Sequence record: MT446422.1
Length of the DNA stretch: 64,000 bases
Reading direction: 5' to 3' (one strand)
Origin: Escherichia virus TH57
This document shows positions 19,010 through 60,800 of this stretch, one piece after another. The translations under genes and the position numbers were made by a program. Under the pieces are notes generated by a model. It had not been told where the DNA came from. It worked only from the letters and a program-made list of their open reading frames with translations, and searched no databases. Positions within the stretch are counted from its first letter, which is position 1; every line of letters begins with the position of its first letter.

Positions 19010-20188
19010 ATGTCTATTGCAGATTTGAAATCCCGTTTGATTAAAGCTTCTACATCCAAAATGACTGCGACTCTTACTAAGTCCAAGTTTTTTAATGATA
19101 AAGATGTAGTTCGTACAAAAATCCCGATGCTGAACATTGCAATCAGCGGTGCACTAGATGGTGGTATGCAGTCAGGTTTGACTATTTTTGCTGGTCCGTC
19201 AAAACACTTTAAATCCAATATGGGTTTAACGATGGTCTCTGCATATATGAACAAATACCCCGAAGCAATCTGTTTGTTCTATGATTCAGAATTTGGTATC
19301 ACAGAAGCCTATCTGCGTGCAATGAAAGTAGACCCGGAGCGTGTTATCCACACACCAATCCAGTCGGTTGAACAATTGAAAGTTGATATGGTTAACCAGC
19401 TTGAAGCAATTGAGCGTGGTGAAAAAGTCATTATCTTTATTGACTCAATCGGTAACATGGCGTCAAAAAAAGAAACAGAAGATGCGATGAACGAAAAAGT
19501 CGTTGGCGATATGACTCGTGCTAAATCCCTGAAATCTCTGTTCCGTATTGTTACCCCATATTTTAGTATCAAGGATATTCCTTGTGTCGCGGTTAACCAT
19601 ACAATCGAGACGATTGAGATGTATAGCAAAACCGTTATGACCGGTGGTACAGGTGTTATGTATTCTGCGGACACCGTATTCATTATCGGCAAACGCCAGA
19701 TTAAAGAAACTGGTAAAGAACTTGAAGGTTTCCAATTTGTTCTGAATGCCGAAAAATCTCGTATGGTCAAAGAGAAAAGTAAATTCTTCATTGATGTAAA
19801 ATTCGATGGTGGTATTGACCCGTATTCTGGCCTGCTTGATATGGCAATGGAAATCGGATTTGTAGTGAAACCGAAAGTTGGTTGGTATAACCGTGAATAT
19901 CTTGATGTTGAGACCGGTGAAATGGTCCGCGAAGAAAAATCATGGCGTGCAAAAGATACTAACTGTACTGAATTCTGGGGCCCGTTGTTTAAGCACGAAC
20001 CTTTCCGTGACGCAATCAAACGCCATTACCAACTGGGTGCAATCGATAGCAATGCTGTTGTTGATGCCGAAGTTGATGCGCTTATTGCCTCCAAGGTTGA
20101 AAAATACTCTGCCCCTGAAGGTAAGGCAAAACCATCTGCGGCAGATATCGAAAACGATTTAGATATGATGGAAGACCTTGATGAATGA
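19010..20188 (+). CDS. uvsX: RecA-like recombinase UvsX
   Basis: 392 aa; Walker A GPSKHFKS; matches recalled T4 UvsX. Confidence 0.95.
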   Translation: MSIADLKSRLIKASTSKMTATLTKSKFFNDKDVVRTKIPMLNIAISGALDGGMQSGLTIFAGPSKHFKSNMGLTMVSAYMNKYPEAICLFYDSEFGITEAYLRAMKVDPERVIHTPIQSVEQLKVDMVNQLEAIERGEKVIIFIDSIGNMASKKETEDAMNEKVVGDMTRAKSLKSLFRIVTPYFSIKDIPCVAVNHTIETIEMYSKTVMTGGTGVMYSADTVFIIGKRQIKETGKELEGFQFVLNAEKSRMVKEKSKFFIDVKFDGGIDPYSGLLDMAMEIGFVVKPKVGWYNREYLDVETGEMVREEKSWRAKDTNCTEFWGPLFKHEPFRDAIKRHYQLGAIDSNAVVDAEVDALIASKVEKYSAPEGKAKPSAADIENDLDMMEDLDE

Positions 20189-20522: not shown

Positions 20523-21946
20523 AAACTATTTTATCCCAGCTACTCTTTAACAAGGAATATTTTGTTAAAGTCTGGCCATATCTTAATAACACATATTTTG
20601 AAAAGGGTCCAGCAAAGACCCTTTTTAATACGATTAACGAACACGTAAAAGAATATCAAGCGGTACCAACTAAGACTGCACTTGATATCGCGCTCGACAG
20701 TTCTGACCTTTCTGAAGTCGAATATGAAGGCACAAAGAAACTCTTAGGAGTCCTGGCCGATACTCCAGAAGACCAGGAATGGTTGGTCAAAGAAACCGAG
20801 AAGTATGTACAGAAGTCTGCGATGTTCAATGCCACATCCAGGATTATCGAAATCCAGAGTAATGCCGAACTTCCAAAAGATAAACGTGATAAACGAATCC
20901 CAGATATTGGGGCTATCCCTGACATCATGCGCGATGCATTGTCCATCTGTTTTGACTCTGCTCTGGGGCATGACTGGTTAAACGATTACGAAGCTCGATT
21001 CCAGACTTATCTGAACAAATCGAAGAAGGTTCCGTTCCGTATTAACATCCTGAATAAAATCACGAAGGGTGGAGTTGAGTACGGCACAGAGAACGTTTTA
21101 CTGGCCGGGACAAACGTCGGCAAATCCCTTGGACTTTGTTCGTTAGCGGCTGACTATCTTCAGACTGGTCATAACGTGCTTTATATAAGCATGGAAATGG
21201 CTGAAGAAGTATGTGCCAAACGTATTGATGCCAACTTGTTGGATGTATCTCTGGATGATATTGATGAAGGTCATGTGTCATGGGCAGAATACAAAAGTAA
21301 GATGGAAAAATGGCGTGCTTCCGGGACTCTCGGGACTCTGAAGATAAAACAATATCCAACTGGGGGCGCGCATGCGGATACCTTCCGTGCATTACTGAAC
21401 GAGTACAAACTGAAGCAAGGATTTGTACCGGATGTGATTATTGTTGACTACCTGGCAATCTGCGCAAGCTCAAGACTGAAAACGTTTACCGAAAACAGTT
21501 ACGGCCTGATTAAGATGGTTGCAGAAGAACTTCGTGGTCTGGCGGTCGAGAAAAATGTGGTCCTGTGGACTGCAGCACAGACAACCAGGGGCGCAAACGT
21601 TGCAGCTGAGATTGACATGGCTGACATCGCAGAATCCTTTGGTATTGCTCACACGGCTGACTTTATGTTGGGTGTTGTTGAGACCGAAGAATTCGCTCAA
21701 ATGGGACTGCAGTTAATCAAACAGCTTAAGTCTCGTTATGGCGATAAGAACTACTATAATAAATTCAAGATGGGTGTTAAGAAAGGTAATCAACGCTGGT
21801 ATGAGGTTGATGATGATTCAGCTCCTAAACAAGGCCCTACGGTGAAAGAAGCCACTGGTGAGATGAATCGTCAGGCTGAAATGAATAGACAAACCAGGGT
21901 CAACAGGAGCGACCTGGATGACCTTGCCGCTCAAATGAAATTTTAA
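20507..21946 (+). CDS. 41: replicative DNA helicase gp41 (DnaB-like)
   Basis: 479 aa; Walker A GTNVGKS; hexameric-helicase motifs. Confidence 0.95.
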   Translation: MVEVVETILSQLLFNKEYFVKVWPYLNNTYFEKGPAKTLFNTINEHVKEYQAVPTKTALDIALDSSDLSEVEYEGTKKLLGVLADTPEDQEWLVKETEKYVQKSAMFNATSRIIEIQSNAELPKDKRDKRIPDIGAIPDIMRDALSICFDSALGHDWLNDYEARFQTYLNKSKKVPFRINILNKITKGGVEYGTENVLLAGTNVGKSLGLCSLAADYLQTGHNVLYISMEMAEEVCAKRIDANLLDVSLDDIDEGHVSWAEYKSKMEKWRASGTLGTLKIKQYPTGGAHADTFRALLNEYKLKQGFVPDVIIVDYLAICASSRLKTFTENSYGLIKMVAEELRGLAVEKNVVLWTAAQTTRGANVAAEIDMADIAESFGIAHTADFMLGVVETEEFAQMGLQLIKQLKSRYGDKNYYNKFKMGVKKGNQRWYEVDDDSAPKQGPTVKEATGEMNRQAEMNRQTRVNRSDLDDLAAQMKF

Positions 21947-21958
21947 AATATTTTAAAA

Positions 21959-21978
21959 GGGGCTTACAGCCCCTTTTT
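21959..21978 (+). terminator. rho-independent terminator after gene 41
   Basis: GGGGC ttaca GCCCC followed by TTTTT. Confidence 0.55.
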
Positions 21979-21980
21979 CT

Positions 21981-21991
21981 TATGTTATAAT
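21981..21991 (+). promoter_or_regulatory. -10 element (TATAAT) with conserved leader upstream of ORF 22018
   Basis: TTATAATGACCCTATCAACTACTGGAGAATAAAATG, same leader family as the other cassettes. Confidence 0.4.
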
Positions 21992-23681: not shown

Positions 23682-23685
23682 TATG
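23643..23685 (+). repeat. 43-nt gene-end/gene-start junction repeat (second copy at 24001-24043)
   Basis: 39 of 43 nt identical; both encode DDQIFNAFMKR(D/G), stop, TAATATG start. Confidence 0.7.
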
Positions 23686-24039
23686 AGTTATTATAATTTT
23701 CTGAATTTTGAACTGGCCAGCAATAATGATGGTAATGCTCGTTATGAATTTCGTGAGCCTCGGTTTAATCAGGCGATTGGTTATATTATCGTTAAAGATG
23801 ATGTTATCATAAAGGCTCGCTCATTTATGGTAATGGATGGACCTTATGAAGATACTCGTGGATACCCATTTGATAAAAAGAATGTGCGCGATTGCGCAAT
23901 CTGGATAACTGGGAACCCTGAAATTGGGGTCATGATATCTACTGAAGCGAATGACATTCTGGAAGGGGTAGCCAAAGCTCAAGAACCGCCTACTGATATT
24001 GATGACCAGATTTTTAATGCCTTCATGAAGCGAGGTTAA
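23683..24039 (+). CDS. hypothetical protein (118 aa)
   Basis: C-terminus DDQIFNAFMKRG; 3' 43 nt nearly identical to the end of the preceding gene. Confidence 0.45.
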   Translation: MSYYNFLNFELASNNDGNARYEFREPRFNQAIGYIIVKDDVIIKARSFMVMDGPYEDTRGYPFDKKNVRDCAIWITGNPEIGVMISTEANDILEGVAKAQEPPTDIDDQIFNAFMKRG

Positions 24040-24647: not shown

Positions 24648-25676
24648 ATGTCATATATTGATAAAGAATTTGCGGTCAGAGCTTTATCGTATCAACCACG
24701 TTATAGAGAAGTCACCGGGAGCACATTTAAAGCAAACTGTCGTTGTAAGGTTTGCGGGGACTCCCAGAAAGATTCACATAAGGCTCGATTCTGGGCGTAT
24801 ACCAATCCGTCTGATGGTGCGGTTTACGTGAAATGTTTTAACTGTGACTACTCCACGCATATAAGCAAATACATAAAAGAGTTTGAGCCGGATTTGCACC
24901 GGGAATATATGGTTGAGAAGTACAAGGAAAATGCCTTCGGTCGACAACGTAATGAAGTTGCAGAAACTCCGAAAGAACCAGAAAAAACTCCGGTTATTGA
25001 AGAGCTTGCTTTTTGCGAAAGAATCGATACTTTACCAGAAGCACATCCGATAGTTAAGTATGTGAAAAGTCGGTGTATTCCGAGCAATGTTTGGAACCGG
25101 TTATGGTTTACAAACAAATGGCCTGCATTAGTTAACTCCGTTAATCCTGGGACGTATAAGAATGAAACGAATGAACCACGCTTGGTTATTCCTATCTTCA
25201 ACGGCAAAAAAGAAATCGAATCTTTCCAAGGACGAGCTCTTCGCAAAGATGCACCACAAAAATATATCACAATCAAAGCTCACCCAGAAGCTTCCAAAGT
25301 CTATGGCGTAGACAAGATTGATGAGCGCAAGCGCGTGTGGGTAATGGAAGGTCCGATTGATAGTTTGTTTATCCCTAACAGCATTGCGATAACCGGTGGA
25401 ACATTAGCATTGGAAGCCGTTCCTTATGCTGAAACCCGAGTATGGGTAATGGACAACGAGCCAAGACATCCGGATACGATTAAACGTATGAAGAAACTCG
25501 TTGAAGCTGGCGAAGCTGTTATGTTCTGGGACAATGCACCATGGCATACGAAAGACATAAATGAGATGGTTAAATCGGAGGGTGCAACCCCTGAACAAAT
25601 CGAATCATATATGGCCGATAACGTTGCTCAAGGGCTGATGGCGAGAATGCGACTTTCGAAGTACGCAAAAGTTTAG
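24648..25676 (+). CDS. 61: DNA primase gp61
   Basis: 342 aa; N-terminal zinc ribbon (CRCKVCGDS ... CFNC); canonical position after 41. Confidence 0.92.
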   Translation: MSYIDKEFAVRALSYQPRYREVTGSTFKANCRCKVCGDSQKDSHKARFWAYTNPSDGAVYVKCFNCDYSTHISKYIKEFEPDLHREYMVEKYKENAFGRQRNEVAETPKEPEKTPVIEELAFCERIDTLPEAHPIVKYVKSRCIPSNVWNRLWFTNKWPALVNSVNPGTYKNETNEPRLVIPIFNGKKEIESFQGRALRKDAPQKYITIKAHPEASKVYGVDKIDERKRVWVMEGPIDSLFIPNSIAITGGTLALEAVPYAETRVWVMDNEPRHPDTIKRMKKLVEAGEAVMFWDNAPWHTKDINEMVKSEGATPEQIESYMADNVAQGLMARMRLSKYAKV

Positions 25677-25784
25677 GAAGGGATTCCGGTAAAGTAACCG
25701 ATGATGGAATGGATATGTTCCATTGTGACCTGAGGTAAGTGTACCCCTTGTGATGCAGCGATAGGCATAACCAGTAAGTTCTAC

Positions 25785-25982
25785 CTATATAAGGCCGATT
25801 AATGCCAGTGAAACATCTACAACTGATTCGAGTGCGATGACTGGCAATATAACGCCATGTGCCAATGCAACAGGGGCAACAATGAAATTCCAGAGTAGAA
25901 CTAAACAGAGTATCGAAAGGACTAGAATCGTTCGCTTACGACTGCCTTTGATGGCTTGAATTAGACTAGATAGTTTTAGCAT
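25785..25982 (-). CDS. small membrane protein (65 aa) on the late strand
   Basis: Only minus-strand ORF inside the early block; AAGGAGGA RBS upstream of ATG 25982 (alternative TTG start at 26012); two hydrophobic helices. Confidence 0.4.
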   Translation of the reverse strand: MLKLSSLIQAIKGSRKRTILVLSILCLVLLWNFIVAPVALAHGVILPVIALESVVDVSLALIGLI

Positions 25983-26066
25983 ATATCCTCCTTTCTTGTA
26001 TTTATGCTTCAAACCAATATGATATAATTAACATACAAACAACATGAATTGATAAGGAAAAATATA

Positions 26067-26585
26067 ATGGCTCATTTTAATGAATGTTCACAACTGATTG
26101 CTGGTGTTGACAAAGCTGAAGAAGCTTATGACAATGCAATTATCGAAGGCACTGACCCGCTGCAGATTATGCTTGATATGCAGAAATCATTGCAGGTCCG
26201 TTTGGCTACTGAAAAACCAGAATACAACTCACATCCAGACGAATTGGCTACCGCCGGCGATGTTGTTGCATGGCTTCGTAACCAGAAAGATTATGTTGAT
26301 GATGAATTCCGTGAACTTCTAACTTCTCTCGGTGGTATGTCTAATGGCGAGAAAGCTGCATCTAGTGTATGGAAGCCTTGGAAAGCCCAACATGCTGAAT
26401 TCCGTAATCGTCGTATTGATGAGTTGTCTCCTGAAGACCAGCTCGAAATTAAATTTGAGATGATTGACATCCTGCACTTTGTTCTGAACATGTTCCATGG
26501 TCTTGGCCTGTCGGCAGAAGAAATCTTTAAATTGTATTACCTGAAAAATGCTGAAAACTTTGCTCGTCAAGACCGAGGTTATTAA
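26067..26585 (+). CDS. 56: gp56-like dCTP/dUTP pyrophosphatase (MazG-like all-alpha NTP pyrophosphatase)
   Basis: 172 aa from ATG 26067; acidic metal-binding helices (DDEFRELL, EIKFEMIDILHF); position between 61 and soc as in T4. Confidence 0.6.
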   Translation: MAHFNECSQLIAGVDKAEEAYDNAIIEGTDPLQIMLDMQKSLQVRLATEKPEYNSHPDELATAGDVVAWLRNQKDYVDDEFRELLTSLGGMSNGEKAASSVWKPWKAQHAEFRNRRIDELSPEDQLEIKFEMIDILHFVLNMFHGLGLSAEEIFKLYYLKNAENFARQDRGY

Positions 26586-31463: not shown

Positions 31464-32788
31464 TTAAATTTGAAGACTTGAACACAGGACAAAAAGAAGC
31501 TTTTGATTATATCACTGAAGCTATTCAGCGACGTTCAGGGGAATGTATCACTCTGAATGGCCCAGCTGGCACAGGTAAGACCACTCTGACAAAATTTGTC
31601 ATTGACCACTTAGTGCGTAATGGAGTTATGGGAATTGTGCTCGCTGCACCAACTCACCAGGCGAAAAAAGTTTTATCTAAATTGTCTGGTCAAACAGCGA
31701 ATACAATCCATAGTATCCTGAAGATTAACCCGACCACATATGAAGACCAAAACGTTTTTGAACAGCGCGAAATGCCTGACATGTCAAAATGTAATGTTCT
31801 GGTTTGTGATGAAGCAAGTATGTATGACGGGTCTCTGTTTAAGATTATTCTTAACTCTGTTCCCGAATGGTGTACTATTCTTGGGATTGGTGATATGCAC
31901 CAGCTGCAGCCAGTTGACCCAGGAAGCACACAACAAAAGATAAGCCCATTCTTTACGCATCCTAAGTTCAAACAGATTCATCTGACTGAGGTCATGCGAA
32001 GTAATGCTCCTATCATTGAAGTGGCGACAGAAATTCGCAATGGTGGTTGGTTCCGTGACTGCATGTATGAAGGCCATGGCGTGCAAGGTTTCACCTCACA
32101 AACCGCTTTAAAGGATTTCATGATAAACTATTTCAGTATTGTAAAAGATGCTGATATGTTGATGGAAAACAGGATGTATGCATACACGAATAAATCAGTT
32201 GAAAAACTGAACAATATTATTCGTCGCAAGCTATATGAAACGGACAAAGCATTTTTACCGTATGAAGTCCTGGTTATGCAAGAGCCACACATGAAAGAGC
32301 TGGAATTTGAAGGTAAGAAATTCAGCGAAATTATTTTTAACAATGGTCAGTTAGTTCGCATCAAGGATTGCAAATACACTTCCACCATTCTCCGCTGTAA
32401 AGGCGAATCGCACCAGTTAGTGATTAATTACTGGGACCTGGAAGTTGAGTCAATTGATGAAGATGAAGAATATCAGGTTGACCGCATTAAAGTTTTACCA
32501 GAAGACCAGCAACCAAAATTCCAGGCATATCTGGCGAAAGTTGCTGACACATACAAACAGATGAAAGCCGCTGGTAAACGTCCAGAGTGGAAAGACTTCT
32601 GGAAAGCGCGCAGGACCTTCTTGAAAGTTCGTGCTCTTCCGGTCAGTACAATCCATAAGGCACAGGGCGTTTCAGTGGACAAAGCATTCATCTATACTCC
32701 ATGCATCCATATGGCCGAAGCTTCATTAGCGAGCCAGTTGGCTTATGTAGGAATCACACGAGCGAGGTACGACGCATATTATGTATAA
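31460..32788 (+). CDS. dda: DNA helicase Dda (SF1B)
   Basis: 442 aa; Walker A GPAGTGKTT; matches recalled T4 Dda. Confidence 0.92.
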   Translation: MIKFEDLNTGQKEAFDYITEAIQRRSGECITLNGPAGTGKTTLTKFVIDHLVRNGVMGIVLAAPTHQAKKVLSKLSGQTANTIHSILKINPTTYEDQNVFEQREMPDMSKCNVLVCDEASMYDGSLFKIILNSVPEWCTILGIGDMHQLQPVDPGSTQQKISPFFTHPKFKQIHLTEVMRSNAPIIEVATEIRNGGWFRDCMYEGHGVQGFTSQTALKDFMINYFSIVKDADMLMENRMYAYTNKSVEKLNNIIRRKLYETDKAFLPYEVLVMQEPHMKELEFEGKKFSEIIFNNGQLVRIKDCKYTSTILRCKGESHQLVINYWDLEVESIDEDEEYQVDRIKVLPEDQQPKFQAYLAKVADTYKQMKAAGKRPEWKDFWKARRTFLKVRALPVSTIHKAQGVSVDKAFIYTPCIHMAEASLASQLAYVGITRARYDAYYV

Positions 32789-39100: not shown

Positions 39101-41335
39101 ATGATTTTAGAAACTGAAAAGGAAACAATCCTTGGTAATGGTGCCAAGGCATCAGCATTCACAATCCAGGCATCTCCAAAGGTGTTTAAGATTCTGACCA
39201 GCGACCTTTATACAAACAAGGTGCGCGCGGTTGTTCGTGAGCTGATTACCAATATGATTGATGCTCATATGCTCAATGGTTGTCAGGATAAATTCATTGT
39301 GCAAGCTCCTGGTGAACTGGACCCACGTTTTGTATGTCGTGACTTTGGTCCGGGTATGAGTGATTTCCAGATTCGTGGTGATGAAAATACTCCAGGTCTG
39401 TATAACAGTTTCTTTGCATCATCCAAGGCTGAATCCAACGATTTTATTGGTGGCTTTGGCCTGGGTTCTAAATCTCCGTTCAGTTATACCGAGACGTTTA
39501 GCCTGATTTCATATCATGATGGTCAAGTTAACGGTTATGTCGCTTATATGGATGGCGATGGCCCACAGATTAAGCCAACCTTTAGCGAACCAATGAAACC
39601 TGGTGACCGCACAGGGATTGAAGTTGTTGTCCCGGTTGATAGTAATGATTTTGGTAAGTTCCGCTACGAGATTGCGTATATCATGCGTCCATTTGCTGGA
39701 CTGGCTGAAGTGCAAGGCGTAGGCGAAATTAATTACTTCCCAGAATTTGATGATTATTATGCTCCAGCGCGTATTGATTATAGCAGCCCAGAACGTTATG
39801 GACTTTATGCAATTTACGGCGGTATTGTTTATCCGATTGGTGACGGTTATACAAAGAAAACCTGGATGACTGCCAAAAATGATGTTGTCTTTATTAAGTT
39901 CCCGATGGGTTCGTTGGATATTGCACCTTCTCGCGAAGCATTATCACTGGACAAACGTACGGTCGCAAATATCGTTGAACGTATTGAATCGCTTGATAAG
40001 AAGGTCATGGAAGATGATTGTAAGAAATGGCAGGAATCAGAATGTATCCGCCATACGTATCGCGAATTGCAGAGTCTGAGTTATGAAGCTCGTAATTTTC
40101 TGAAAGCTCGTAATGCTGAAACGAAATTTACAAAATCACAATTGACTTTTAACCAGATGTACGAAATGTTCGAGCTGGACAAAGACCTTATTAATGCCGG
40201 GGTTGTCTATGATATCTATAGCACCACCCGTCTGAAACGTCTGCGTAACTCAAGCTCGAACACGAATACTGCAAGCCTGACAAGCATGTTTGGTATTCAT
40301 AATGATACCTTGAATATTGTTATTGACGATGCTAAAGGGCGAATTGCGATGATTCGTGGTATCAGTTCAATGCTGTATGACACCAGCGCGAAAGCCAAAA
40401 AGCTCAAAGCATCTGGTAAAGTTCCGACTGTGCAGGGTAGTAGTCTATTGTTCGTTGACCCAACCAGCGAAATTCAAACACGTCTGATGGTTCAACTTCA
40501 AGAACGATTTAAAGGCGATACAGTTAATATCTATCGTACGTCTGAACTGACCGCCCTTGTAAAAGACTGGATTCCGGTTGCGGACCCGAAAGAGCGTGTT
40601 AAGTCAAAGACTCCATCGGTGATTCGTTGGACTAAAACCAATGGTCGATGGCAGGCTGTTGAAGAATTTACATGCGCTGCTGATGCAGAGGAAATCGATG
40701 GTTATGCTGTATTCATTAACCGTAGCAACATTTCCCCGTTGAATCAGGATTATGGCGTCACGAACTTCGGGACCCAGACATTGTGCAAACTGGCAAACCT
40801 GTTGGAAATCAATGAATTCTGTGTTATTCGTCCACAGCTTCAGAAAAAGGTTACCAAGCTGGCGCAGTGTGATTGTCTGATTGAAGCTGCAGTCAATCGT
40901 TATGTGGAATTGATTGATTCAGTTGATGCGGACCAGTACATTGCCGCTTCAAGCCGTTCGCGTTATTATATTCCTATCCTGTCTGAATATGCAGAACTGA
41001 ATTTTATGTTCAAGTATTTTTATGCAAAAGATGTTCAGAAAGATGTGAACACTGACTATGCCGAACTAATGCAGTTCAATAAGTTCTTTGCTTATAACGC
41101 ATATAACAGTGGAACAGTTGATAAGACCATGCAGGAAACTCTGGTCCTTTGTAATAAGATTTATGACGACCTGACCAAAAACGCTTCGGTAACAAGCGAT
41201 AAAATGGTTTTTGAATTTGAAAAGAATCACCCGATTGTTTCACACTTTTTATATAACCGTAACGCCATGTCAACTGAACAAGTACAGAACGTTGCTCAAA
41301 TCATGAAGGCCGTGGAAGCGGCCAATAAGGAATAA
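39101..41335 (+). CDS. rIIA: rIIA protein
   Basis: 744 aa; N-terminal region matches recalled T4 rIIA (KETILGNG..KVFKILTSDLYTNK..RELITNMIDAH). Confidence 0.92.
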   Translation: MILETEKETILGNGAKASAFTIQASPKVFKILTSDLYTNKVRAVVRELITNMIDAHMLNGCQDKFIVQAPGELDPRFVCRDFGPGMSDFQIRGDENTPGLYNSFFASSKAESNDFIGGFGLGSKSPFSYTETFSLISYHDGQVNGYVAYMDGDGPQIKPTFSEPMKPGDRTGIEVVVPVDSNDFGKFRYEIAYIMRPFAGLAEVQGVGEINYFPEFDDYYAPARIDYSSPERYGLYAIYGGIVYPIGDGYTKKTWMTAKNDVVFIKFPMGSLDIAPSREALSLDKRTVANIVERIESLDKKVMEDDCKKWQESECIRHTYRELQSLSYEARNFLKARNAETKFTKSQLTFNQMYEMFELDKDLINAGVVYDIYSTTRLKRLRNSSSNTNTASLTSMFGIHNDTLNIVIDDAKGRIAMIRGISSMLYDTSAKAKKLKASGKVPTVQGSSLLFVDPTSEIQTRLMVQLQERFKGDTVNIYRTSELTALVKDWIPVADPKERVKSKTPSVIRWTKTNGRWQAVEEFTCAADAEEIDGYAVFINRSNISPLNQDYGVTNFGTQTLCKLANLLEINEFCVIRPQLQKKVTKLAQCDCLIEAAVNRYVELIDSVDADQYIAASSRSRYYIPILSEYAELNFMFKYFYAKDVQKDVNTDYAELMQFNKFFAYNAYNSGTVDKTMQETLVLCNKIYDDLTKNASVTSDKMVFEFEKNHPIVSHFLYNRNAMSTEQVQNVAQIMKAVEAANKE

Positions 41336-41336
41336 T

Positions 41337-42311
41337 ATGTTTAATATTAAAGCTTTATCCAAATTTGACCAAAACCAGGTAGTTTCTCTTTATAAAACTG
41401 GTAATTATACCCAACAGGAACTAGCAGATAATTTCGGTGTATCGGTTGACACCATTCGCCGTGTTTTGAAAAATGATAAAGAATCAAAATTATCTAAAAC
41501 CATTTCTGCATCACTGAAAGCAGCTGTTGGTGTGGCGATTAATGCTCCGGTGACAGTAACGGTTGAAGTCCCGGTTGTTGAAGATACAATCGGCGGGAGC
41601 CGCCCGGAAATCGTATGGAATGCATCAAGCAAATTCGTTTCCATCACCGAAGGTCGTACGGTCTGGAACGCAACAAAAGACCATAAACACTTTAATGATA
41701 TTATTCAGGCATTGATTGAATCTCGTTTTGATGATGCTATCGAGTTTATCTCAATCAAAGCTGCAGTACAAAAATATGTGAAAGGCGATGTGCGTATTGA
41801 AGGTGGTAGTTTGTTCTATCAGGGAATTGAACTGCGCTCTGGCCTGGTTACTCGTATCATTGATTCAATGCAAAATGGCGAAGACTTTGAATTCTATCTG
41901 CCGTTCCTTGAGAATCTCCTTGAGAACCCGAGTGAGAAAGCTGTACAGCGTTTGTTTGACTTCCTGGTTGCAAACGATATCGAAATCACCGAAGATGGCC
42001 ATTTCATCGCCTGGAAAATGGTTCGTTCAACCTACAAAGATTGCCACTCAAACACATTCGACAACAGCCCTGGCCAATATGTTAAAATGCCGCGCTCTCG
42101 TGTGAATGACAATGACGAACAGACCTGTTCAACTGGGCTGCACGTTTGTTCTAAAGGTTATATCGGAAGTGGCTTTGGTCATGGTGATGGGCGCATCGTA
42201 TCCTGTAAAGTTCACCCGCGCGATGTTGTAAGCATCCCGGTGGATTATAATGATTCCAAAATGAGGGTATGTGGTTATCTGGTCCTTGATGATGTAACTG
42301 AACAATTCTAA
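41337..42311 (+). CDS. rIIB: rIIB protein
   Basis: 324 aa; motifs NYTQQELAD..GVSVDTIRRVLKN and C-terminal LHVCSK..HPRDVVSIP as recalled for T4 rIIB. Confidence 0.92.
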   Translation: MFNIKALSKFDQNQVVSLYKTGNYTQQELADNFGVSVDTIRRVLKNDKESKLSKTISASLKAAVGVAINAPVTVTVEVPVVEDTIGGSRPEIVWNASSKFVSITEGRTVWNATKDHKHFNDIIQALIESRFDDAIEFISIKAAVQKYVKGDVRIEGGSLFYQGIELRSGLVTRIIDSMQNGEDFEFYLPFLENLLENPSEKAVQRLFDFLVANDIEITEDGHFIAWKMVRSTYKDCHSNTFDNSPGQYVKMPRSRVNDNDEQTCSTGLHVCSKGYIGSGFGHGDGRIVSCKVHPRDVVSIPVDYNDSKMRVCGYLVLDDVTEQF

Positions 42312-42318
42312 ATGAATC

Positions 42319-42332
42319 GGGGCTTCGGCCCC
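42319..42332 (+). promoter_or_regulatory. RNA hairpin GGGGCUUCGGCCCC after rIIB
   Basis: Identical 14-mer to that at 12972; 8 nt after rIIB stop, before the next RBS. Confidence 0.4.
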
Positions 42333-42344
42333 TAATGAGGCTTT

Positions 42345-42542
42345 ATGTTAGGTTTCCAAGCACGTGTAGTTGAAGAATATGACCAGCTGGTTTTGAAAAT
42401 CAATGCTCTTGAAGAATTTATTAAGGGCGGTGTTTTTGAAACTCTCGATGCTCGTCAACAAGGTCTTTTGATTGCCCAGTTAGATGCAATGGGTGCTTAT
42501 GCTCATGTACTGGCAATTCGTATCTCTTATTTTGGTGAATAA
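42345..42542 (+). CDS. hypothetical protein (65 aa)
   Basis: ORF preceded by GGGGCTTCGGCCCC hairpin and GAGG RBS. Confidence 0.4.
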   Translation: MLGFQARVVEEYDQLVLKINALEEFIKGGVFETLDARQQGLLIAQLDAMGAYAHVLAIRISYFGE

Positions 42543-42545
42543 ATT

Positions 42546-42815
42546 ATGATTAAGCATTTCAATGTGTCAGACCGTGACATCAAAGTTTCAAATCTCCGGG
42601 GTCACCATTACGCAGGAATAGTTTACTGTGGCAAGCTCATCAAGCATGAAGGTGATGTTCACTATGGCTGGTTGGAATGTGATGAAGTAGTTGTTGGGGA
42701 ATTCCCTGACCCGGATTCTGATACATTTGATGCTAATGACCGTTTGTATTATGGCGAGCTTCATATCCGGGGAATCGTCGGTATCGATGAGGTAAAAGAT
42801 GATTCAGAAGAGTAA
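42546..42815 (+). CDS. hypothetical protein (89 aa)
   Basis: ORF only. Confidence 0.4.
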   Translation: MIKHFNVSDRDIKVSNLRGHHYAGIVYCGKLIKHEGDVHYGWLECDEVVVGEFPDPDSDTFDANDRLYYGELHIRGIVGIDEVKDDSEE

Positions 42816-43392
42816 AACATGGGAGCATCTGAAAAAGATGCCCTCCTTTCTTTATACAAAGGAAGACTTAACACCTGAATCCCTACAAAAGATTGTAGAC
42901 ACGGCCAGGTATTCATTGCGTAAAGACCCAGGTCAAGACCGTGAGCAAGTCATGCAAAGATGTATGGTGGCTACAATGGCAGAACAAGCTATTGCTAAAT
43001 GGACCTCCGGCTTTTTATGCGGCGGTGATGAAGATTACGATAATCCTTATTCCTTTGCATTTGATGTAGTTTCGAAGGAAGGGGTAAGAATCGAAGTCAA
43101 GACCCACCAGTCTGGTTCCAAATGGATATCCGTGCATACTGGTAGTCAGGGCGATTATCCACATGGTTACGGGATTAATCTTGGTCCTTTTATGCAACAC
43201 AAGCTTGCTGACCTTATGATTATGTTTAATGTAAAAGAGACTATCAAAGGTTATAGATTTAAACCAAAATTCCTTGCTGGGCCTGGGGCTTTTGTTCCTG
43301 AGTCCGGTCTTGTGCAGAAGTCACAAGGGGATGGCTGGTACCTCCGTTCTTGTTCAGAAGAAAAATTCCCCTATCACCGGTTTACAAGCTGA
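42799..43392 (+). CDS. hypothetical protein (197 aa), possible PD-(D/E)xK nuclease at the denB position
   Basis: FDVV...RIEVKT resembles a D...ExK nuclease motif; occupies the post-rIIB slot where T4 has denB; speculative. Confidence 0.4.
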   Translation: MIQKSKTWEHLKKMPSFLYTKEDLTPESLQKIVDTARYSLRKDPGQDREQVMQRCMVATMAEQAIAKWTSGFLCGGDEDYDNPYSFAFDVVSKEGVRIEVKTHQSGSKWISVHTGSQGDYPHGYGINLGPFMQHKLADLMIMFNVKETIKGYRFKPKFLAGPGAFVPESGLVQKSQGDGWYLRSCSEEKFPYHRFTS

Positions 43393-43439
43393 ACCAACCA
43401 TGTAATAATGTCCTCACACCAACAAATGAGGACATTATC

Positions 43440-43715
43440 ATGGACCACGTTACTACTCACAACATTAAACAAATTCTTATTCAAGCACTCAAAAACAACA
43501 ACATCAATTTTCCAACCCATGAAATTTTTGATGTGGTATTCAACGAAGTCCAGGGTCAAGTTGCATATTATGACGTTATCGTTTATCTTTCAGAATTTGA
43601 AGTCTACCACCTGACTGAAATCGCTTTCTATCTCTATCGTGGAACAGCAGATTTTACTGGTGTCGTGAATGCAGTTGGCGCATATAAAGAAGTTAAAGAA
43701 CAAATGCACAATTAA
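43440..43715 (+). CDS. hypothetical protein (91 aa)
   Basis: ATG 43440 with GAGGA RBS. Confidence 0.4.
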   Translation: MDHVTTHNIKQILIQALKNNNINFPTHEIFDVVFNEVQGQVAYYDVIVYLSEFEVYHLTEIAFYLYRGTADFTGVVNAVGAYKEVKEQMHN

Positions 43716-45373: not shown

Positions 45374-45823
45374 ATGACTACTTACATGACCCGTCGTGAC
45401 GTACTGAATGCTGGCGCTACCACTGTTGCTCACATCCATAATGGCAATTATGTTGTAGGGCGTCCAACTAAAGAAGCTATCACCCAACCAGGTTTTTATT
45501 TCGTGGTTAAAGGTGAAGGCGAATCACGTATTGTTGCTGCACGTTTTTACGTTGGTAACCAACGTTCACAACAAGGGTTTGACACTGTATTAAGTCACAT
45601 CCGCAAACAGCGTTCACAACTGTCGCGCACAATGGCGAACAATGGTGTTATCTATGAAGTCCTGTTTGTTCCAGTTTCTAAAATGAAACCTTTGACAACT
45701 GGTTATGGTAAAGGTCAAATTGCGATGGCGTTCACACGCTCACATAGTTCTGATTGTCAGACCCTTTCAGAAATGAATCGCATGCTTGCTGATAACTTTA
45801 AATTCATTTTGCAGAGCTATTAA
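45374..45823 (+). CDS. ndd: nucleoid disruption protein Ndd
   Basis: 149 aa; matches recalled T4 Ndd ([30 protein letters not shown]); canonical position upstream of stp/ac/52. Confidence 0.8.
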
Positions 45824-46209: not shown

Positions 46210-47589
46210 ATGTCTGACGTTTTAAGTATGATGTCCAAACAGTTCAGTGATTCCATGGGGTCCCTTAACCCACGCAGTCTAAAAGACATTATTGATGTGG
46301 AAGCATTGTCATATGCTATCTACACTGTGGAAGGTCGTGCCATCCCAAACATGATTGATGGTTTTAAACCAGTTCACAGATTTGTTATGGCGAGAGCATT
46401 AGACCTGGCTCGTGGCGATAAGAATAAATTCCATAAGGTTGCCTCCATTGCAGGTGGCGTAGCTGATTATGGTTATCACCATGGCGAAGCATCAGCGGAA
46501 GAAGCAACTTCTGGTCTGGTCGCAACATATAAAAATGAATACCCCATGTTTGATGGGCAAGGCAACTTTGGTTCCAGAATGGTGCCAGAAGCATCATCAG
46601 CTCGTTATGTATTCGCAAGGGTTTCAAAGAACTTTTATAACTTGTTTAAGGATACAGAATATGCTCCGGTCCATCCTGATGAAGAACATAAGCCTCCTGC
46701 TTTTTATCTTCCTGTTATTCCTACTGTATTACTTAACGCCACTTCTGGGATTGCTGTTGGCTTCGCTACTGATATTCTTCCTCATTCGTTCCAGGACGTC
46801 AAGGAAGCTGTTAAAGCTATCGTGGAAGGTCGTGAGCCGGTTGCTCCGAAAGTAAAATATCCAGAATTCCGTGGTGAAGTTGTTGAGCTGGAAGAGCCTG
46901 GTAAGTATGAGCTTCATGGCACGTACAAAATGACTTCCAGGACTCAAATGGAAATTACTGAAATCCCGGTCCAATGGAACCTGGAAAAGTATACAAGTAA
47001 AATCCTGGACCCACTGGAAGAGAAAGGTTTTATCACCTGGAAAGATAACTGTGGCGAGCATGGTTTTGGGTTTAAGATTAAATTCCGTAAGGAATACAAG
47101 CTGGATGGCACTGAAGAAGAAAATCATGAGAAAATCATGAAAGACTTTGGTCTGATTGAGAAGCTCTCCCAGAACTTAACTGTACTTAATCACAAAGGCA
47201 AATTGGCTGAATACACCAACACGCTTGACCTGATTCGCGATTTCGTTGATGTCCGTAAGACTTATGTCCAAGTGCGAATTGACAGTAAGATTAAAGAAAC
47301 TGAAGCCGCGTTTAAACTGGCCCGAGCAAAAGTCTTCTTTATTAAAGAAGTGATTGATGGTAAGGTTGTTATCCAGGGGAAACCTCGTAAGAAGTTGATT
47401 GAGGAGCTCCAGGCGAGTGAAATATATGGCGATTATGCAGAGAAGTTAGTGGCGATGAACATCTACCATATGACCTCTGATGAAGCCAAGAAGCTTGCAG
47501 ACGAAGCAAAGGCTAAGAAAGCCGAGCATGAGTACTGGAAGACAACTGATGTTAAAACTGAATACCTTAATGATTTGGAGGCTCTATGA
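46210..47589 (+). CDS. 52: DNA topoisomerase II medium subunit gp52 (GyrA-like)
   Basis: 459 aa; GyrA-type breakage-reunion N-terminal region. Confidence 0.92.
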   Translation: MSDVLSMMSKQFSDSMGSLNPRSLKDIIDVEALSYAIYTVEGRAIPNMIDGFKPVHRFVMARALDLARGDKNKFHKVASIAGGVADYGYHHGEASAEEATSGLVATYKNEYPMFDGQGNFGSRMVPEASSARYVFARVSKNFYNLFKDTEYAPVHPDEEHKPPAFYLPVIPTVLLNATSGIAVGFATDILPHSFQDVKEAVKAIVEGREPVAPKVKYPEFRGEVVELEEPGKYELHGTYKMTSRTQMEITEIPVQWNLEKYTSKILDPLEEKGFITWKDNCGEHGFGFKIKFRKEYKLDGTEEENHEKIMKDFGLIEKLSQNLTVLNHKGKLAEYTNTLDLIRDFVDVRKTYVQVRIDSKIKETEAAFKLARAKVFFIKEVIDGKVVIQGKPRKKLIEELQASEIYGDYAEKLVAMNIYHMTSDEAKKLADEAKAKKAEHEYWKTTDVKTEYLNDLEAL

Positions 47590-50336: not shown

Positions 50337-50627
50337 ATGATTACTAAACTCCATACATATCAAGCAACTGAATTGGTTATTCTTATTGATGAGCTTTTTA
50401 AAATCCATGCTTCAGTTCCAGCCGAAATCTATGCAGAAATTCTTTGTGATTTGGATAGCAGCTTTGGCTATATTCAACCGGAATATACAATTAGATTCTC
50501 TAGTGAACGACCTGGCTACGCTAAAGTGGTTTTTGGTCCTGGATTAGATGAAGAACAAGTATTAAGAGAAATTCAAGAAGAAATTGATGATTTTGGTTTA
50601 GAAGATTACATCGAGGAATCACTATGA
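50337..50627 (+). CDS. acidic protein (96 aa), Arn-like candidate
   Basis: Strongly acidic C-terminus (EEQVLREIQEEIDDFGLEDYIEESL); near asiA where T4 has arn; speculative. Confidence 0.35.
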   Translation: MITKLHTYQATELVILIDELFKIHASVPAEIYAEILCDLDSSFGYIQPEYTIRFSSERPGYAKVVFGPGLDEEQVLREIQEEIDDFGLEDYIEESL

Positions 50628-56671: not shown

Positions 56672-57808
56672 TTATTCTTTTTCACGGAATTCTGCAGCAA
56701 ATACAAATCCAGATTGACTGGACCTTGTTGCATTTTTATCATTCAATTGTGCAATGACATTACCAAGATTTCCCGGTTCTCCAGCTACAACCATTCTTAT
56801 GCCGTTGACACCGATTTCTGCAGATTTAGCTTGTGTTTCTTGTCGAGCGATTTCTGTAAAGAAAATATTCCTTACTCCACCTTGCCCTGCAGCAGCGGTC
56901 TTCCTTGCGTACAGTGTAAATCCATCGGCATTCGGTGGAACAACTACATAACGTTCAAACGTCATCCATGCACCAGCCGGTGGGCTTGCTTGACCCGTAG
57001 CAGGAATATCATAATCGTTTGACTGAATCATAGTCTGTCCATTAAAGAATCGAACAGACATCTGAGTTGTTCCAAGGTCTTTAAGTGCCTGGTCATATGT
57101 CAGTTGAAACTTCAGGTAAAAAGTATCACCCGGAGCCATATTATAATCGGCCGCAGGAGTGATGGGAGAGTCTGTGGGGAAACGTTTTATTTCTTGTGTA
57201 CTATTACTGTAATATGTGTTTTCGTCTTCCACGACGCGCAGAGGGAATCCTGTGCCGCCCACATCAGCAAAGTCGTCATACACCATTTCCAATGGAGTCA
57301 ATACATCCTCAACAGTTACCCCGTCATTATACAACACATGCTCTTTAACGATTGCATTTCGACCAGTTATATAAAAAGCCGAATACGAAGTATCAACTTG
57401 GTCAATCAACCACTTATCCGGAAATGCAGTCGAGCCGTGTGTTCTGAACCAATCAATTAAAGTTTGAGAAGCATTCAATTTCCCCTGTGATATCAAACAA
57501 ACAATCCTACCCGCTGGAATGGAATTAATATAAGTCACAAATGCCTGTGAAATGACATCATAGTCTTTTGTGAAGCCATAGTTTTTAGTTGCAGTGATTG
57601 TATTTGTTACTGGGTCAATCTCAATAAGGTTTAATCCATTTTGGAAGTTCTGAGGCCCGAAGGCCTCATCTTGAAACTTAACGTAGGGATAGTTTGGCGA
57701 TTTGGTACAAGTCCCTGCAATCGACAATTTATATCTTACTGCGTTATTTTCAGAAAGCACGGGAACTTGGACATATCCCTGTCCAAATTCTGCCATCAAT
57801 CTTTCCAT
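56672..57808 (-). CDS. 35: long tail fibre hinge protein gp35
   Basis: 378 aa; position between 34 and 36. Confidence 0.8.
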   Translation of the reverse strand: MERLMAEFGQGYVQVPVLSENNAVRYKLSIAGTCTKSPNYPYVKFQDEAFGPQNFQNGLNLIEIDPVTNTITATKNYGFTKDYDVISQAFVTYINSIPAGRIVCLISQGKLNASQTLIDWFRTHGSTAFPDKWLIDQVDTSYSAFYITGRNAIVKEHVLYNDGVTVEDVLTPLEMVYDDFADVGGTGFPLRVVEDENTYYSNSTQEIKRFPTDSPITPAADYNMAPGDTFYLKFQLTYDQALKDLGTTQMSVRFFNGQTMIQSNDYDIPATGQASPPAGAWMTFERYVVVPPNADGFTLYARKTAAAGQGGVRNIFFTEIARQETQAKSAEIGVNGIRMVVAGEPGNLGNVIAQLNDKNATRSSQSGFVFAAEFREKE

Positions 57809-57816
57809 AATACCTC

Positions 57817-60800
57817 TTATGGTGTATCAATCCATTCGAATTTAACGGATTTGGTTACTGGGTCCGGAACAATACGTACATTACCGATTCTTAACCAATC
57901 TCTGATAGTCAGGTTACTCATCGATGCATTATCAGAAGGCAATGCACCGATATCCGAAGGCTGAGGAGGGTTACCACCATCAAATACCTGAACAAAACCT
58001 GACCATGCGTTTTTGTTCTGCTGCCATGTACGAGTCCAGCGAGTAGTGCTTCCATCTGCTGTGTTTGGATAGGTAATCCAATCCTGGTAAAGTGAATTCA
58101 GCGTGTTACCAAACTGGGTCAAAGTACCCGGAGACTTAACTTCTTCACCACGAACCAGATAAGGCAGACCAGTTACTTCGTTGGTCTTTTCAACCATTTT
58201 GAAATAACCTGGGAACTGATTATATGTGGCTGAATCGTTAATGTCGATAGACCAAAAACCTGCATTATCCATTGTAGGTTTTCTGCTATAGATGTCAGAA
58301 GTCTTATCTCCTGTAACCCTTGCATATTTCTGAACAGCTAAGCCGTTGTTAAGTGTAGCTTTGTTGCTTACCGTAAGGAAGTTGTTAATAGTAACAGCGC
58401 CTTCGAATCTAGATTCACTATTAGCAACTAGCCCTGTGGTTGTGATACCAGAAGCTTTAGTAACACTAAGACCGCCGTTAATTATAGCAGACCCATTACC
58501 AAGAACAAAATTACCTGCAGTTATTTCTAAATCACCATTCCGTCTAAAGGTCCATTTGCGCTGGGGTTTTACCGAATCTATATAATGAAGAATAAAAGCA
58601 CCTTCATCATTTGAGGTGGGTTCATTTATCAATGTGCCAAAGGTAAATGTCCCATCTTTATAACGTTGCTTAATTAAAGGAACGTATCTAGATGAGCCAG
58701 ACGGAGTAGTTATATTTAAAAATACAGGAGCTTTAACATTACTATCGTGTTGAGAGTTCCAAGTACCCGAGCCTTGAGATTCTGAAGTGAACTCAATGTA
58801 ATTCAGAGCACCTACTGTAGAATTGCTATTGATTGTAGTAGCACCAGTTAATGTGGTATTATTTGAAGTAACAGAACCACTCAAATTAACTACGCCAGTA
58901 ACTGTCAAAGTACTTTCAATTCTTACAGGCTGTTTAAATGTCATAGTAGCGTTAATATCCTGGGCTACATCACGACGAATAAACTGGGTTGAATCCAGGT
59001 TGTCCAATTTATCAGAGTCTACCGCTTTAGCCAAACGCGGCAGGAAGTTACCAAGGGTTTTGTTTAACTCATACGGAGAGATAGCATAGCTATTTTTCTC
59101 GTACAGGTCAAGAGCCTGAGTAGAACCTGCAGTTGCATTACCGACAAAAGTAATTGCGCCTTCAGACATCTTAGCAAAGCCGCGGGTCGTCGTGGTTGCT
59201 GCCCATGTTGGTTCGGACTGCGCAATCCATTTCAGACTAACAGGAGAAACAGCCAGAACAGAACTTGTTCCTGCGATAGTTTCTGCACGAGTAGCGATGC
59301 GAACAATACCTTCGGTGTCTTCTGTAGCTTTTTTCGACATCAACTTAAGCGGAGTAACGATAGTTTTATCATCAGTACCCGTGTTTACTTCCAACTGAGT
59401 AGCCAGTCTTGCGGTGCCACGTTGAGTCTCATTTGCTTCAAGAATATTCAGCGTATAATGGTCCCAGAGCGTCCCTGTTTCTACTAAACCACTTGCTGCA
59501 ATAACAGAAGTACGAGCAGTATTATTAAATCTAGTTTTAATTTTTAATGGCGTTGCAATACGAGTATCATCTGTACCAGTATCAAATTCTGATTGCGTAG
59601 CAATCTCGGCTATGCCGGATAATGATTCTGTTGCTTTACGGTCATTCAACGTTTTAGGAGTTACAGCTCTGGTATAATCAGTACCGGCATTAGTTTCAAC
59701 CTGAGTTGCAATCTCGATTAAACCGTGGTTTGAATCTGTTGCTCTGCGGGCACCTAATGTTTCAGGAGTCACGACCGAGTTACTGAATCCTATATTTGTT
59801 GCACCAGCGTTAACTTCTGACTGAGTTGCTAGATATACAGCACCTTGGTTATTCTGGTCAGCTTTATATTGGTCTAAAGCTTTAGGAGAAATAACTAAAT
59901 TAGTTGTATTTTTGTTATAAACGTTGGTACCAACAGTTATACGGCTTGCCGCTGGAGTAGTCCCGGTAGTAGGAACATACTTAACGATACCAGATAGGCT
60001 TTCTGAGCCCTGACGAGCTTGTAGCTTACGCGGAGTGATGATGGTAGTATCATCAGTGCCTGCATCAGTTTCTTGTTGTGTGGCGATTTCTGCAAGCCCA
60101 CGTCTTGTTTCTGTGGCTGTACGTTCGTTTAACTTTTTCGGAGAGACGATGATGTCGTCCTGGAAAGCAAAAGTCGTATCCTGATTCACCTGGGCAGTGT
60201 TAGCAATTCGCGCAATACCACGACGTGATTCAGTGGCCACACGGTTAGCTAAAGTCTGCGGGGTAATCGCTAATTCTTTTTCAGGGTTATTTTCATGGTC
60301 AACGTTAGCCTGAGCCTGGTTGGCCAGTGCAATAACACCCAAACGAGCACGAGTCAAATCATCTTTCGAGTCAACACGTTCAACAGTCGGAACGTTCTGA
60401 GCAACAACCCAGTAGTTAATGTTATTATCTGTATCTTCAAGATAACTTAATTCGATAACCGGAGTATAGCTTATATTGCCATTGAAAGTCAGAGAGTCAA
60501 CCAGTACCCATTCAGTATCAGGTGGATATTCCGAACGTTTCGGGAACTGAAGCAGTTGAACAGAAGACGCGATTTTATCAGTAGCCGAAGCTTTAATATT
60601 AACAGTCTGTGCCTTGCGAAGATAGTTCAGAGCAATCTTAACTACGTCCCCAGAACGAACCCCCGTCGGAAGGTCGATGTTAATTGTCTGTGAAGTGTTG
60701 TTATCATTACCAAACACGATGATACTTTCATTTGGCAGCAATTTCACACTGTCACGAATTACGCGCAAGCGAGTTTTATTATCACCGTCCCAGGGTACCC

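Follow-up and report, generated by a model that had tools for sequence, protein, structure and literature searches.

A DenB-type endonuclease in a T4-like phage without gene 42, and a candidate source of its cytosine modification

Escherichia virus TH57 carries, in the 64,000-nucleotide stretch of sequence record MT446422.1 that we analysed (the window), an open reading frame (ORF) for a homologue of T4 endonuclease IV, DenB. The T4 enzyme cuts single-stranded DNA 5′ of dC and leaves DNA containing glucosylated hydroxymethylcytosine (hmC) uncut (PMC1635256), and the genes expected for the synthesis of hmC appear to be missing from the phage. We found that the ORF almost certainly encodes a real orthologue of T4 DenB with a nuclease fold, and we consider it probable, on the evidence set out below, that this DenB is functional and that the phage genome is protected from it by 5-methylcytosine (5mC), made through a thymidylate synthase (Td) that carries aspartate at position 177 (Asp177). 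The denB gene itself is ordinary and already annotated; the interest lies in the system around DenB and not in DenB.

The denB gene and its predicted nuclease

The window comes from a T4-like myovirus. Over 20 kb its identity to Escherichia virus TH54 (MT446420.1) is 97.8%, and it is 92-95% identical to other members of the genus Gaprivervirus (the VR7/VR20/VR25/VR26/SP18 group). The neighbours of denB were placed by searching the window with their T4 and JS98 counterparts (tblastn), and the locus is laid out as follows:

39101-41335: rIIA
41337-42311, plus strand: rIIB, the upstream synteny anchor
42345-42542, plus strand: denB.1 homologue, 52% identical to T4 DenB.1 and 92% to JS98 DenB.1, Pfam crAss001_48 family
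42546-42815, plus strand: ORF of 89 amino acids (DUF7418 / PHROG 2237), homologue of JS98 orf264, between denB.1 and denB
42789-42792, plus strand: GAGG Shine-Dalgarno sequence, the putative ribosome-binding site of denB, read from the sequence, 6 nt 5′ of the ATG
42799-43392, plus strand: denB orthologue (endonuclease IV), 197 amino acids, ATG start
43440-43715, plus strand: ORF of 91 amino acids (PHROG 17571), directly 3′ of denB
between denB and ndd: homologues of ndd.6, ndd.4, ndd.2a and ndd.1
45374-45823, plus strand: ndd (nucleoid disruption protein), 61% identical to T4 Ndd, a member of the host-DNA shut-off set
between ndd and gene 52: stp, ac and 52.1
46210-47589: gene 52

The order rIIB-denB.1-denB-ndd-ac-52 is as in T4, and the overall gene order is that of T4 and JS98. 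The placement of the ORF in the T4 denB slot, made in a preliminary description of this DNA, is therefore matched by synteny, except that denB does not stand immediately after rIIB, two small ORFs lying between them as in JS98. The ORF itself exists as described there, and it has an ATG start and a ribosome-binding site. Its start lies inside the end of the preceding ORF, with an overlap of 17 nt, which suggests that translation of denB is coupled to that of the upstream ORF.

The suggestion that the product is a DenB-type enzyme was borne out by comparison with T4 DenB, which showed 47% identity over 178 amino acids (BLASTP, expectation value (E) 4e-59), and by a match of residues 1-196 to PHROG 1360, "DenB-like DNA endonuclease IV" (E 2.4e-80). 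The 34 nearest denB records, 95-100% identical, are all from Gaprivervirus or Gaprivervirus-like phages, and those of them that are annotated, VR7, VR20 and SP18 included, carry the label denB or endonuclease IV. The Pfam model is absent from our local copy of that database; PF26887 is the precomputed Pfam assignment on all DenB homologues. A homologue is present in 1,090 phage records, and the family is small and phage-restricted, since a profile search of 1.84 billion cluster representatives returned 40 proteins at E≤1e-3, nearly all of about 200 amino acids and matched as a single stretch.

When we aligned 21 members of the family, T4 DenB included and down to 40% identity, E62, D89, R97, E99, V100, K101, T102, H103 and S175 were invariant. 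The D...E-V-K pattern that had been pointed out as suggestive of a PD-(D/E)XK nuclease is thus no chance match, because it belongs to the conserved core of the whole family: D89 and E99-V100-K101, together with the helix residue E62, are invariant in 21-26 sequences, and E62, D89, E99 and K101 form the putative active site. Two further residues can be set against T4 genetics. Mutations that abolish the toxicity of T4 DenB were isolated by Hirano et al. at Trp88 and Ser176, W88R losing activity and S176N losing the polarised cleavage of dC tracts (PMC2175332). Ser176 aligns to S175 of the protein studied here, and Trp88 to F88, which adjoins D89; the residue at 88 is aromatic in all homologues, and the exchange of Trp for Phe appears to be a conservative one.

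An AlphaFold2 model of DenB, built with 26 homologues, was confident, with a mean pLDDT (predicted local distance difference test score) of 89.8 and a pTM (predicted template modelling score) of 0.87. In this model E62 lies in a long helix (48-68), D89 directly before a short strand, and E99-V-K101 on strand 97-103, around an alpha/beta core like that of restriction endonucleases, so that the modelled placement of the four residues is the canonical PD-(D/E)XK arrangement. Foldseek ranked NhoI and Eco15I at the top (E 1.8e-4 to 1e-3, probability 0.99) with low TM-scores of 0.3-0.45, and the fold comparison also listed ThaI, BcnI, PvuII, HincII, MspI, SfiI, NaeI and the influenza PA endonuclease. 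The PD-(D/E)XK fold that had been suggested for the protein is supported by the model at moderate significance, and DenB would be a small, single-domain nuclease of this class. The restriction endonucleases closest to it, the N-terminal domain of NhoI / Eco15I and R.SwaI, are only 9-15% identical in sequence at TM-scores of 0.3-0.45, and a profile search with DenB found nothing meaningful among the sequences of the Protein Data Bank. Unlike such restriction enzymes, DenB is monomer-sized and, by homology with T4, would act on single-stranded DNA and need unmodified C, that is, with the opposite polarity.

The resemblance to T4 DenB extends over the full length (197 against 185 amino acids) and includes the slot after rIIB and denB.1, the retained Ser176, the aromatic residue beside the catalytic Asp and the invariant D...EVK. 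The differences are an extension of about 14 residues past the T4 C-terminus (L...FTS), the Phe in place of Trp88, and a genome without gene 42 and without a glycosyltransferase. By homology with T4, DenB of TH57 would cut single-stranded DNA 5′ of unmodified dC; in T4, cleavage takes place in single-stranded regions and prefers TCA and tracts of one to six C (PMC1635256, PMC2175332).

Missing cytosine-synthesis genes and the modified DNA of VR7

Presences and absences across the genome were read from the complete genome of TH54. The preliminary description had taken the hmC synthesis genes to be absent, and tblastn gave the same result: T4 gp42, T4 beta-glucosyltransferase and the ThyA-like gene of the JS98/RB69 type had no match in the window, nor any at E≤1 when the whole of TH54 was searched, alpha-glucosyltransferase not being queried separately. 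The region that holds gene 42 and the beta-glucosyltransferase gene in T4, and the gene 56 homologue, are arranged in the window as follows:

15244-17958: DNA polymerase (gene 43)
17959-19009, plus strand: interval between DNA polymerase and uvsX, about 1 kb, the T4 slot of gene 42 and beta-glucosyltransferase
18028-18270: imm
18306-18407: ORF of 36 amino acids, like JS98 orf44
18394-18924: ORF of 176 amino acids, like JS98 orf43
19010-20188: uvsX
26049-26585, plus strand: gene 56 dCTPase/dUTPase homologue, 69% identical to T4 gp56 (aligned 26067-26582) and 86% to JS98 gp56

In JS98, the interval between DNA polymerase and uvsX additionally holds orf38-orf42 (about 4.2 kb), which encode an arabinosyltransferase, an RB69-gp48-like ThyA homologue making 5-hydroxy-dCMP, a kinase, an isomerase and a 557-amino-acid protein (PMC13326640). 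None of the five was matched in the window or in complete TH54, so that, set against JS98, about 4.2 kb is cleanly missing from between the orf43-like ORF and uvsX, with imm, orf44 and orf43 retained. The flanking genes (43, imm, orf44, orf43 ... uvsX) are those of the sister genus with the arabinosyl-5-hydroxycytosine pathway of RB69 and Dhakavirus, but the whole orf38-orf42 cluster of that pathway is missing here, and the remaining Td keeps Asp169 and would not be a 5-hydroxylase.

The remainder of the T4 machinery against cytosine-containing DNA is in place. TH54 encodes gp56, DenB, DenA (71%), Alc (56%), Ndd (61%), cd (86.5%), Td (67%) and Frd (65%), as well as a gp1 homologue, 46-47% identical. 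Compared with the T4 cytosine-DNA exclusion system (gp42, gp56 and gp1, with DenA, DenB, Alc and Ndd), gp56, DenB and Ndd lie in the window and DenA, Alc, gp1 and cd in TH54, whereas the defining synthase, gp42, and beta-glucosyltransferase are without a match; the system is a variant of T4 cytosine exclusion without its defining synthase. The retention of gp56, which depletes dCTP, implies that ordinary dC is kept out of phage DNA. We also observed that part of Alc, from its N-terminus (residues 3-35, 61% identical), occurs again at TH54 25881-25979, just upstream of the full alc gene (25238-25735).

The paradox that had been raised for this locus, a DenB-type enzyme alongside the loss of gene 42, is thus real at the genome level, and another form of self-protection is required. 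It is not new, having been published in 2021 and 2025 as an open question. Nikulin & Zimin (2021, PMC8056088) pointed out that Gaprivervirus has DenA, DenB, Alc and dCTPase without the known base-synthesis enzymes, suggested "an unknown protein", and stated the same gene combination for the Acinetobacter phages ZZ1 and 133; a 2025 paper in Viruses (PMC12115623) likewise states the Gaprivervirus paradox and leaves the question open. Beyond these two papers, the publications mentioning Gaprivervirus that we searched did not appear, by title and abstract, to deal with DNA modification.

Experimental data bearing on the paradox come from Gordeeva et al. (2018, PMC6326788, Suppl. Fig. S4), who subjected VR7 DNA to digestion by enzymes sensitive to modification, T4 beta-glucosyltransferase being present or absent. 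In their reading, the DNAs of T4 and VR5 are glycosylated and that of the T4 mutant carries hydroxymethyl groups, whereas VR7, distinguished from this mutant, has "modified cytosines" in DNA without glycosylation (PMC6326788). Since VR7 DNA carries modified, unglycosylated cytosines, the DNA of the phage studied here is presumably modified as well and not made with plain C. Self-protection is therefore very probably by cytosine modification, and the phage would not be one whose genome of ordinary cytosine coexists with an active DenB.

Asp177 in thymidylate synthase and the case for 5-methylcytosine

The only ThyA homologue remaining in Gaprivervirus is td (TH54 31522-32382, minus strand; VR7, NC_014792, 142489-143349). 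In TH54 its active-site segment is YQRSVDVFLGLPFDIGSY, with Asp at the position of the Asn that sets pyrimidine specificity in every thymidylate synthase (Asn177 in E. coli, position 187 in Td numbering). In TH54, VR7 and the protein clusters P0026-P0029 the sequence runs ...LPPCH...QRSVDVFLGLPFDIGSY, so that GLPFDIGSY (Asp177, A179G, A182G) in Gaprivervirus stands against GLPFNIASY in JS98 and T4. VR7, the phage with experimental modification data, has the Asp177 form. When the 120 closest Td homologues were drawn from a collection of 5.8 billion proteins, residue 177 was Asn in 114 and one sequence could not be scored; the rest, all with Asp, were the four clusters of Gaprivervirus (86-98% identical; SP18, vB_YenM_P8) and a single metagenomic contig of T4-like type (P0104, contig L021). 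The metagenomic Td keeps the frd-td synteny and has in common with the Gaprivervirus Td about 14 substitutions at otherwise invariant positions.

The consequences of such a change are known from the literature. N177D turns the substrate from dUMP to dCMP and the product to 5-methyl-dCMP (PMC8670742, summarising Liu & Santi 1992; Hardy & Nalivaika 1992; Graves et al. 1992). At position 143, hydrophobic residues are associated with formation of a methyl product and Asp or Glu with that of a hydroxymethyl product, and D169N marks the 5-hydroxy-dCMP synthases (PMC13326640). Moreover, natural Asp177 homologues (five of the seven tested) and the ThyA of phage Xp12, expressed with T4 gp1 in E. coli, yielded 5-methyl-dC (bioRxiv 10.1101/2024.12.05.627091). 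The Gaprivervirus Td keeps Leu143, Cys146, His147, Arg166 and Asp169, and because Asp177, Leu143 and Asp169 fit these residue rules, we predict from the sequence that it is a dCMP methylase.

We then compared Td among phages with different sets of cytosine-related genes. Acinetobacter phage 133, in which denB lies beside rIIB and ndd, alc and gene 56 are annotated, has GKPFDIASY, and ZZ1 has GMPFDIASY; both lack gene 42 and retain DenB, Alc and gp56 (PMC8056088). Asn177 is kept in JS98 and T4, where a separate paralogue of the ThyA-like type is present, and in the Acinetobacter phages DLP3 and Lazarus (PFNIASY), which have a separate 5-hydroxy-dCMP synthase. RB49, in which gene 42, denB and alc are all lacking and the DNA is ordinary (PMC12115623), also has Asn (GLPFNVASY). 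Since RB49 has Asn and 133 and ZZ1 have Asp, Asp177 seems to track the absence of a gp42-type paralogue combined with the retention of DenB and Alc, and not the loss of gene 42 alone.

The mechanism that we propose would run as follows. With the gene-42-type ThyA paralogue and the glycosylation genes lost, cytosines would be replaced by another 5-substituted cytosine that DenB leaves uncut. The phage gp56 would hydrolyse dCTP and dCDP to dCMP, Td (Asp177) would methylate dCMP with methylene-tetrahydrofolate to give 5-methyl-dCMP, with Frd recycling the cofactor, and gp1 and the host nucleoside diphosphate kinase would convert this to 5-methyl-dCTP, which the phage polymerase would incorporate to make 5mC DNA. 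Thymidine nucleotides would come from cd, through deamination of a 5-methyl-dC nucleotide, and/or from host ThyA. DenA, DenB, Alc and Ndd would then act only on C-containing DNA, eliminating or silencing host, plasmid and competitor DNA, and cleavage by DenB would block the replication of C-containing DNA and supply nucleotides to the phage. That 5mC made by Td is the protecting modification has, in our judgement, slightly better than even odds.

The precedent is the 5mC DNA of Xanthomonas phage Xp12. The likeness consists of a single ThyA homologue with Asp177 (read here in relatives) and a hydrophobic residue 143, together with a gene of the dCMP deaminase family, a dCTPase and a deoxynucleoside monophosphate kinase, the supporting enzymes in their predicted roles being gp56 in the window and gp1 (46-47%) and cd (86.5%) in TH54. 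Such a gene set is linked in the literature to full 5mC substitution. Phages with 5mC obtain dTTP by deaminating a 5-methyl-dC nucleotide and do not need a second thymidylate synthase (bioRxiv 10.1101/2024.12.05.627091); Xp12 makes its thymidine nucleotides in this way, and we propose the same logic for Gaprivervirus. The differences are that Xp12 is an unrelated siphovirus without DenB or Alc, and that here the methylase would have arisen by conversion of the T4 td orthologue, with 64-70% identity to genuine thymidylate synthases of T4-like phages, and not as a separate paralogue.

Several points weigh against this interpretation. A Td acting as dCMP methylase needs another source of dTMP, and that step is assumed; we also infer, from the residue rules and the T4 precedent, that the modification is 5mC and that a 5-methyl group blocks DenB (or Alc and DenA). 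The 2018 restriction data say only "modified cytosines" and do not identify the base. The td gene lies outside the window, about 4 kb past its end, which maps to TH54 36141, and Asp177 for TH57 is taken from relatives that are 86-98% identical. The correlation with Asp177 comes from few lineages, namely Gaprivervirus, one metagenomic relative, 133 and ZZ1; that the last two lack gene 42 is stated here on the authority of PMC8056088. Finally, the Td proteins of TH54 and JS98 share 68.5% identity, close to the median of 72% for the genome, and Td is not unusually diverged; accelerated evolution of Td, which we had considered, is not supported, and there is no independent signal of neofunctionalisation beyond the active-site changes. 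In comparison with a T4-like genome (median 61.6%), gp1 (46.5%) and DenB (47.2%) fall in the lower quartile, and gp56, cd and DenA are 74-87% identical; the low conservation of gp1 and DenB, the proteins that would handle the modified nucleotide or base, fits the 5mC model but is only suggestive.

The alternative that survives best is that the cytosines are modified by an unrecognised enzyme (a conserved T4-like ORF, a small lineage-specific protein or a host activity), the Asp177 Td being merely relaxed or bifunctional. This would agree with the published view of an unknown protein and an unknown base (PMC8056088, PMC12115623), with restriction data that leave the base unnamed, and with the many unassigned ORFs of these genomes. 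From all ORFs of at least 70 amino acids in the complete TH54 genome we subtracted those with homologues in the T4-like HP3, which left 53, and then those with homologues in the non-structural regions of JS98 that were compared (1-75 kb and 121-170.5 kb of JS98), which left 25. All were of at most 248 amino acids, and none of the scanned ORFs among the remaining 25 gave an enzyme-family match, so that no new enzyme stands out. Two further candidates were rejected. The 176-amino-acid ORF at 18394-18924 is no replacement for gene 42, being a homologue of JS98 orf43 (52%, PHROG 1754, no Pfam hit) that occurs also in phages with a ThyA-like gene. The cluster at TH54 120-125 kb is not specific, as its 229-amino-acid PHROG 1843 protein, with an HxD...H-like pattern, occurs in 471 phage records, Dhakavirus and other genera with a gene-42-type enzyme among them; the larger unknowns there, which include a 319-amino-acid DUF7275/DUF7277 protein, are likewise found in phages that have such an enzyme. 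An unrecognised enzyme would also leave unexplained the correlation of Asp177 with DenB retention across independent gene-42-less lineages, and we regard it as unlikely.

Less likely again is that the phage DNA contains ordinary C when DenB acts, and that DenB has been re-specified or is restrained by timing, localisation or an inhibitor, for example the product of the 91-amino-acid ORF at 43440-43715. DenB is among the more diverged of the conserved proteins (47% to a T4-like DenB against a genome median of 62%), and that ORF, found only in Gaprivervirus, lies immediately 3′ of denB with its start codon buried in a strong hairpin. Against this stand the cytosine modification shown by experiment in VR7 (PMC6326788), the retention of gp56 dCTPase and Alc, both sensible only if phage DNA lacks ordinary C, and the conservation of those DenB residues that in T4 are linked to toxicity and to the recognition of dC tracts. 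Moreover, T4 with cytosine in its genome can survive only when denB has been inactivated (PMC2175332). We consider this reading a doubtful one.

The use of the gene was judged by comparing denB of the window with that of VR7 or TH40, which gave a synonymous divergence (dS) of 0.34-0.37, a nonsynonymous divergence (dN) of 0.017-0.025 and a dN/dS of 0.047-0.074. As the phages compared are all without gene 42, the low dN/dS shows that strong purifying selection has acted on denB after gene 42 was lost and that denB is in use. The idea that denB is a decaying relic left after the loss of the hmC or 5-hydroxycytosine pathway, which its position in a region of small accessory genes with fast turnover might have suggested, is effectively refuted by this selection test, by a reading frame intact in all 34 nearest records, by the invariance of every motif residue and by a good ribosome-binding site, and is scarcely credible.

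Returning to protection by 5mC, we would put at about even the chance of a broader version, in which several T4-like lineages (Gaprivervirus, its metagenomic relative, 133 and ZZ1) dropped gene 42 and turned their sole thymidylate synthase into a dCMP methylase by exchanging Asn177 for Asp, acquiring fully 5mC genomes in which DenB, Alc and DenA tell C from 5mC. If so, the Straboviridae would gain their first members with 5mC genomes, DenB would be a natural nuclease able to sense one methyl group in single-stranded DNA, and an essential metabolic enzyme would have been re-purposed through a single specificity switch, giving a second, independently evolved route to 5mC genomes in the best-studied phage family. 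Nucleases of the DenB family would then be predicted to be blocked by 5-methylation and would be useful reagents wherever single-stranded DNA is to be cut at unmethylated C alone. For phage therapy, for which Gaprivervirus phages are candidates, there would be practical guidance on the low transduction to be expected, on sensitivity to McrBC/McrA-type and BREX systems, and on behaviour in bisulfite, nanopore and restriction analysis. An Asp177 Td is a specific and cheaply testable explanation for the published, unsolved Gaprivervirus puzzle, and one that we did not find in the literature searched.

Other features of the denB locus and of the rest of the window

For the 91-amino-acid ORF that follows denB, neither JS98 nor the T4-like HP3 has a homologue, and no other gene adjoining denB is specific to Gaprivervirus. 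Between the two genes, after the denB stop codon, we found a strong RNA hairpin (43398-43442; -21 kcal/mol, z = -5.2 against shuffled sequences) with arms at 43407-43416 and 43427-43436, lengthened by CCAUG/CAUGG, whose lower stem pairs the AUG (43440-43442) of the 91-amino-acid gene. This arrangement resembles the T4-style translational masking of a start codon. A second hairpin, GGGGCTTCGGCCCC, with a UUCG tetraloop, lies at 42319-42332 in the 33-nt gap between rIIB and denB.1. The scan reported it for the minus strand only; as GGGGCTTCGGCCCC is self-reverse-complementary, the plus-strand mRNA would fold too, and the hairpin may be an mRNA-stability or processing element. Around denB, promoter-like sites did not exceed their frequency in shuffled sequence, and terminator-like sites, of which there were six against 1.1 expected, are not used as support.

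Elsewhere in the window, a 96-amino-acid ORF (50337-50627) occupies the arn slot between arn.3 and asiA. An inhibitor of McrBC, the function of T4 Arn, would suit a phage with unglycosylated 5-substituted cytosines. As a candidate for a divergent Arn, this ORF was set aside, its 36-residue C-terminal similarity to T4 Arn (36% identity, pairwise E 2e-6, no Pfam hit) being too weak to use. Another ORF, of 118 amino acids (23683-24039, PHROG 4122), has no homologue in JS98 and apparently a weak tblastn match in HP3, and it shows a faint, sub-threshold match (E 3e-4) to the last 15 residues of the Pfam family AdfA (anti-DarT factor A).

Two insertions distinguish TH54 from the window. One, of about 640 bp with a 125-amino-acid ORF, follows gene 41 (TH54 78379-79019) and is absent at window 21879-21983. 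The other (TH54 57549-58052), absent at window 42311-42345, places between rIIB and denB.1 a 163-amino-acid ORF that is possibly, to judge by its sequence, a homing endonuclease, and represents a mobile-element polymorphism beside the denB locus.

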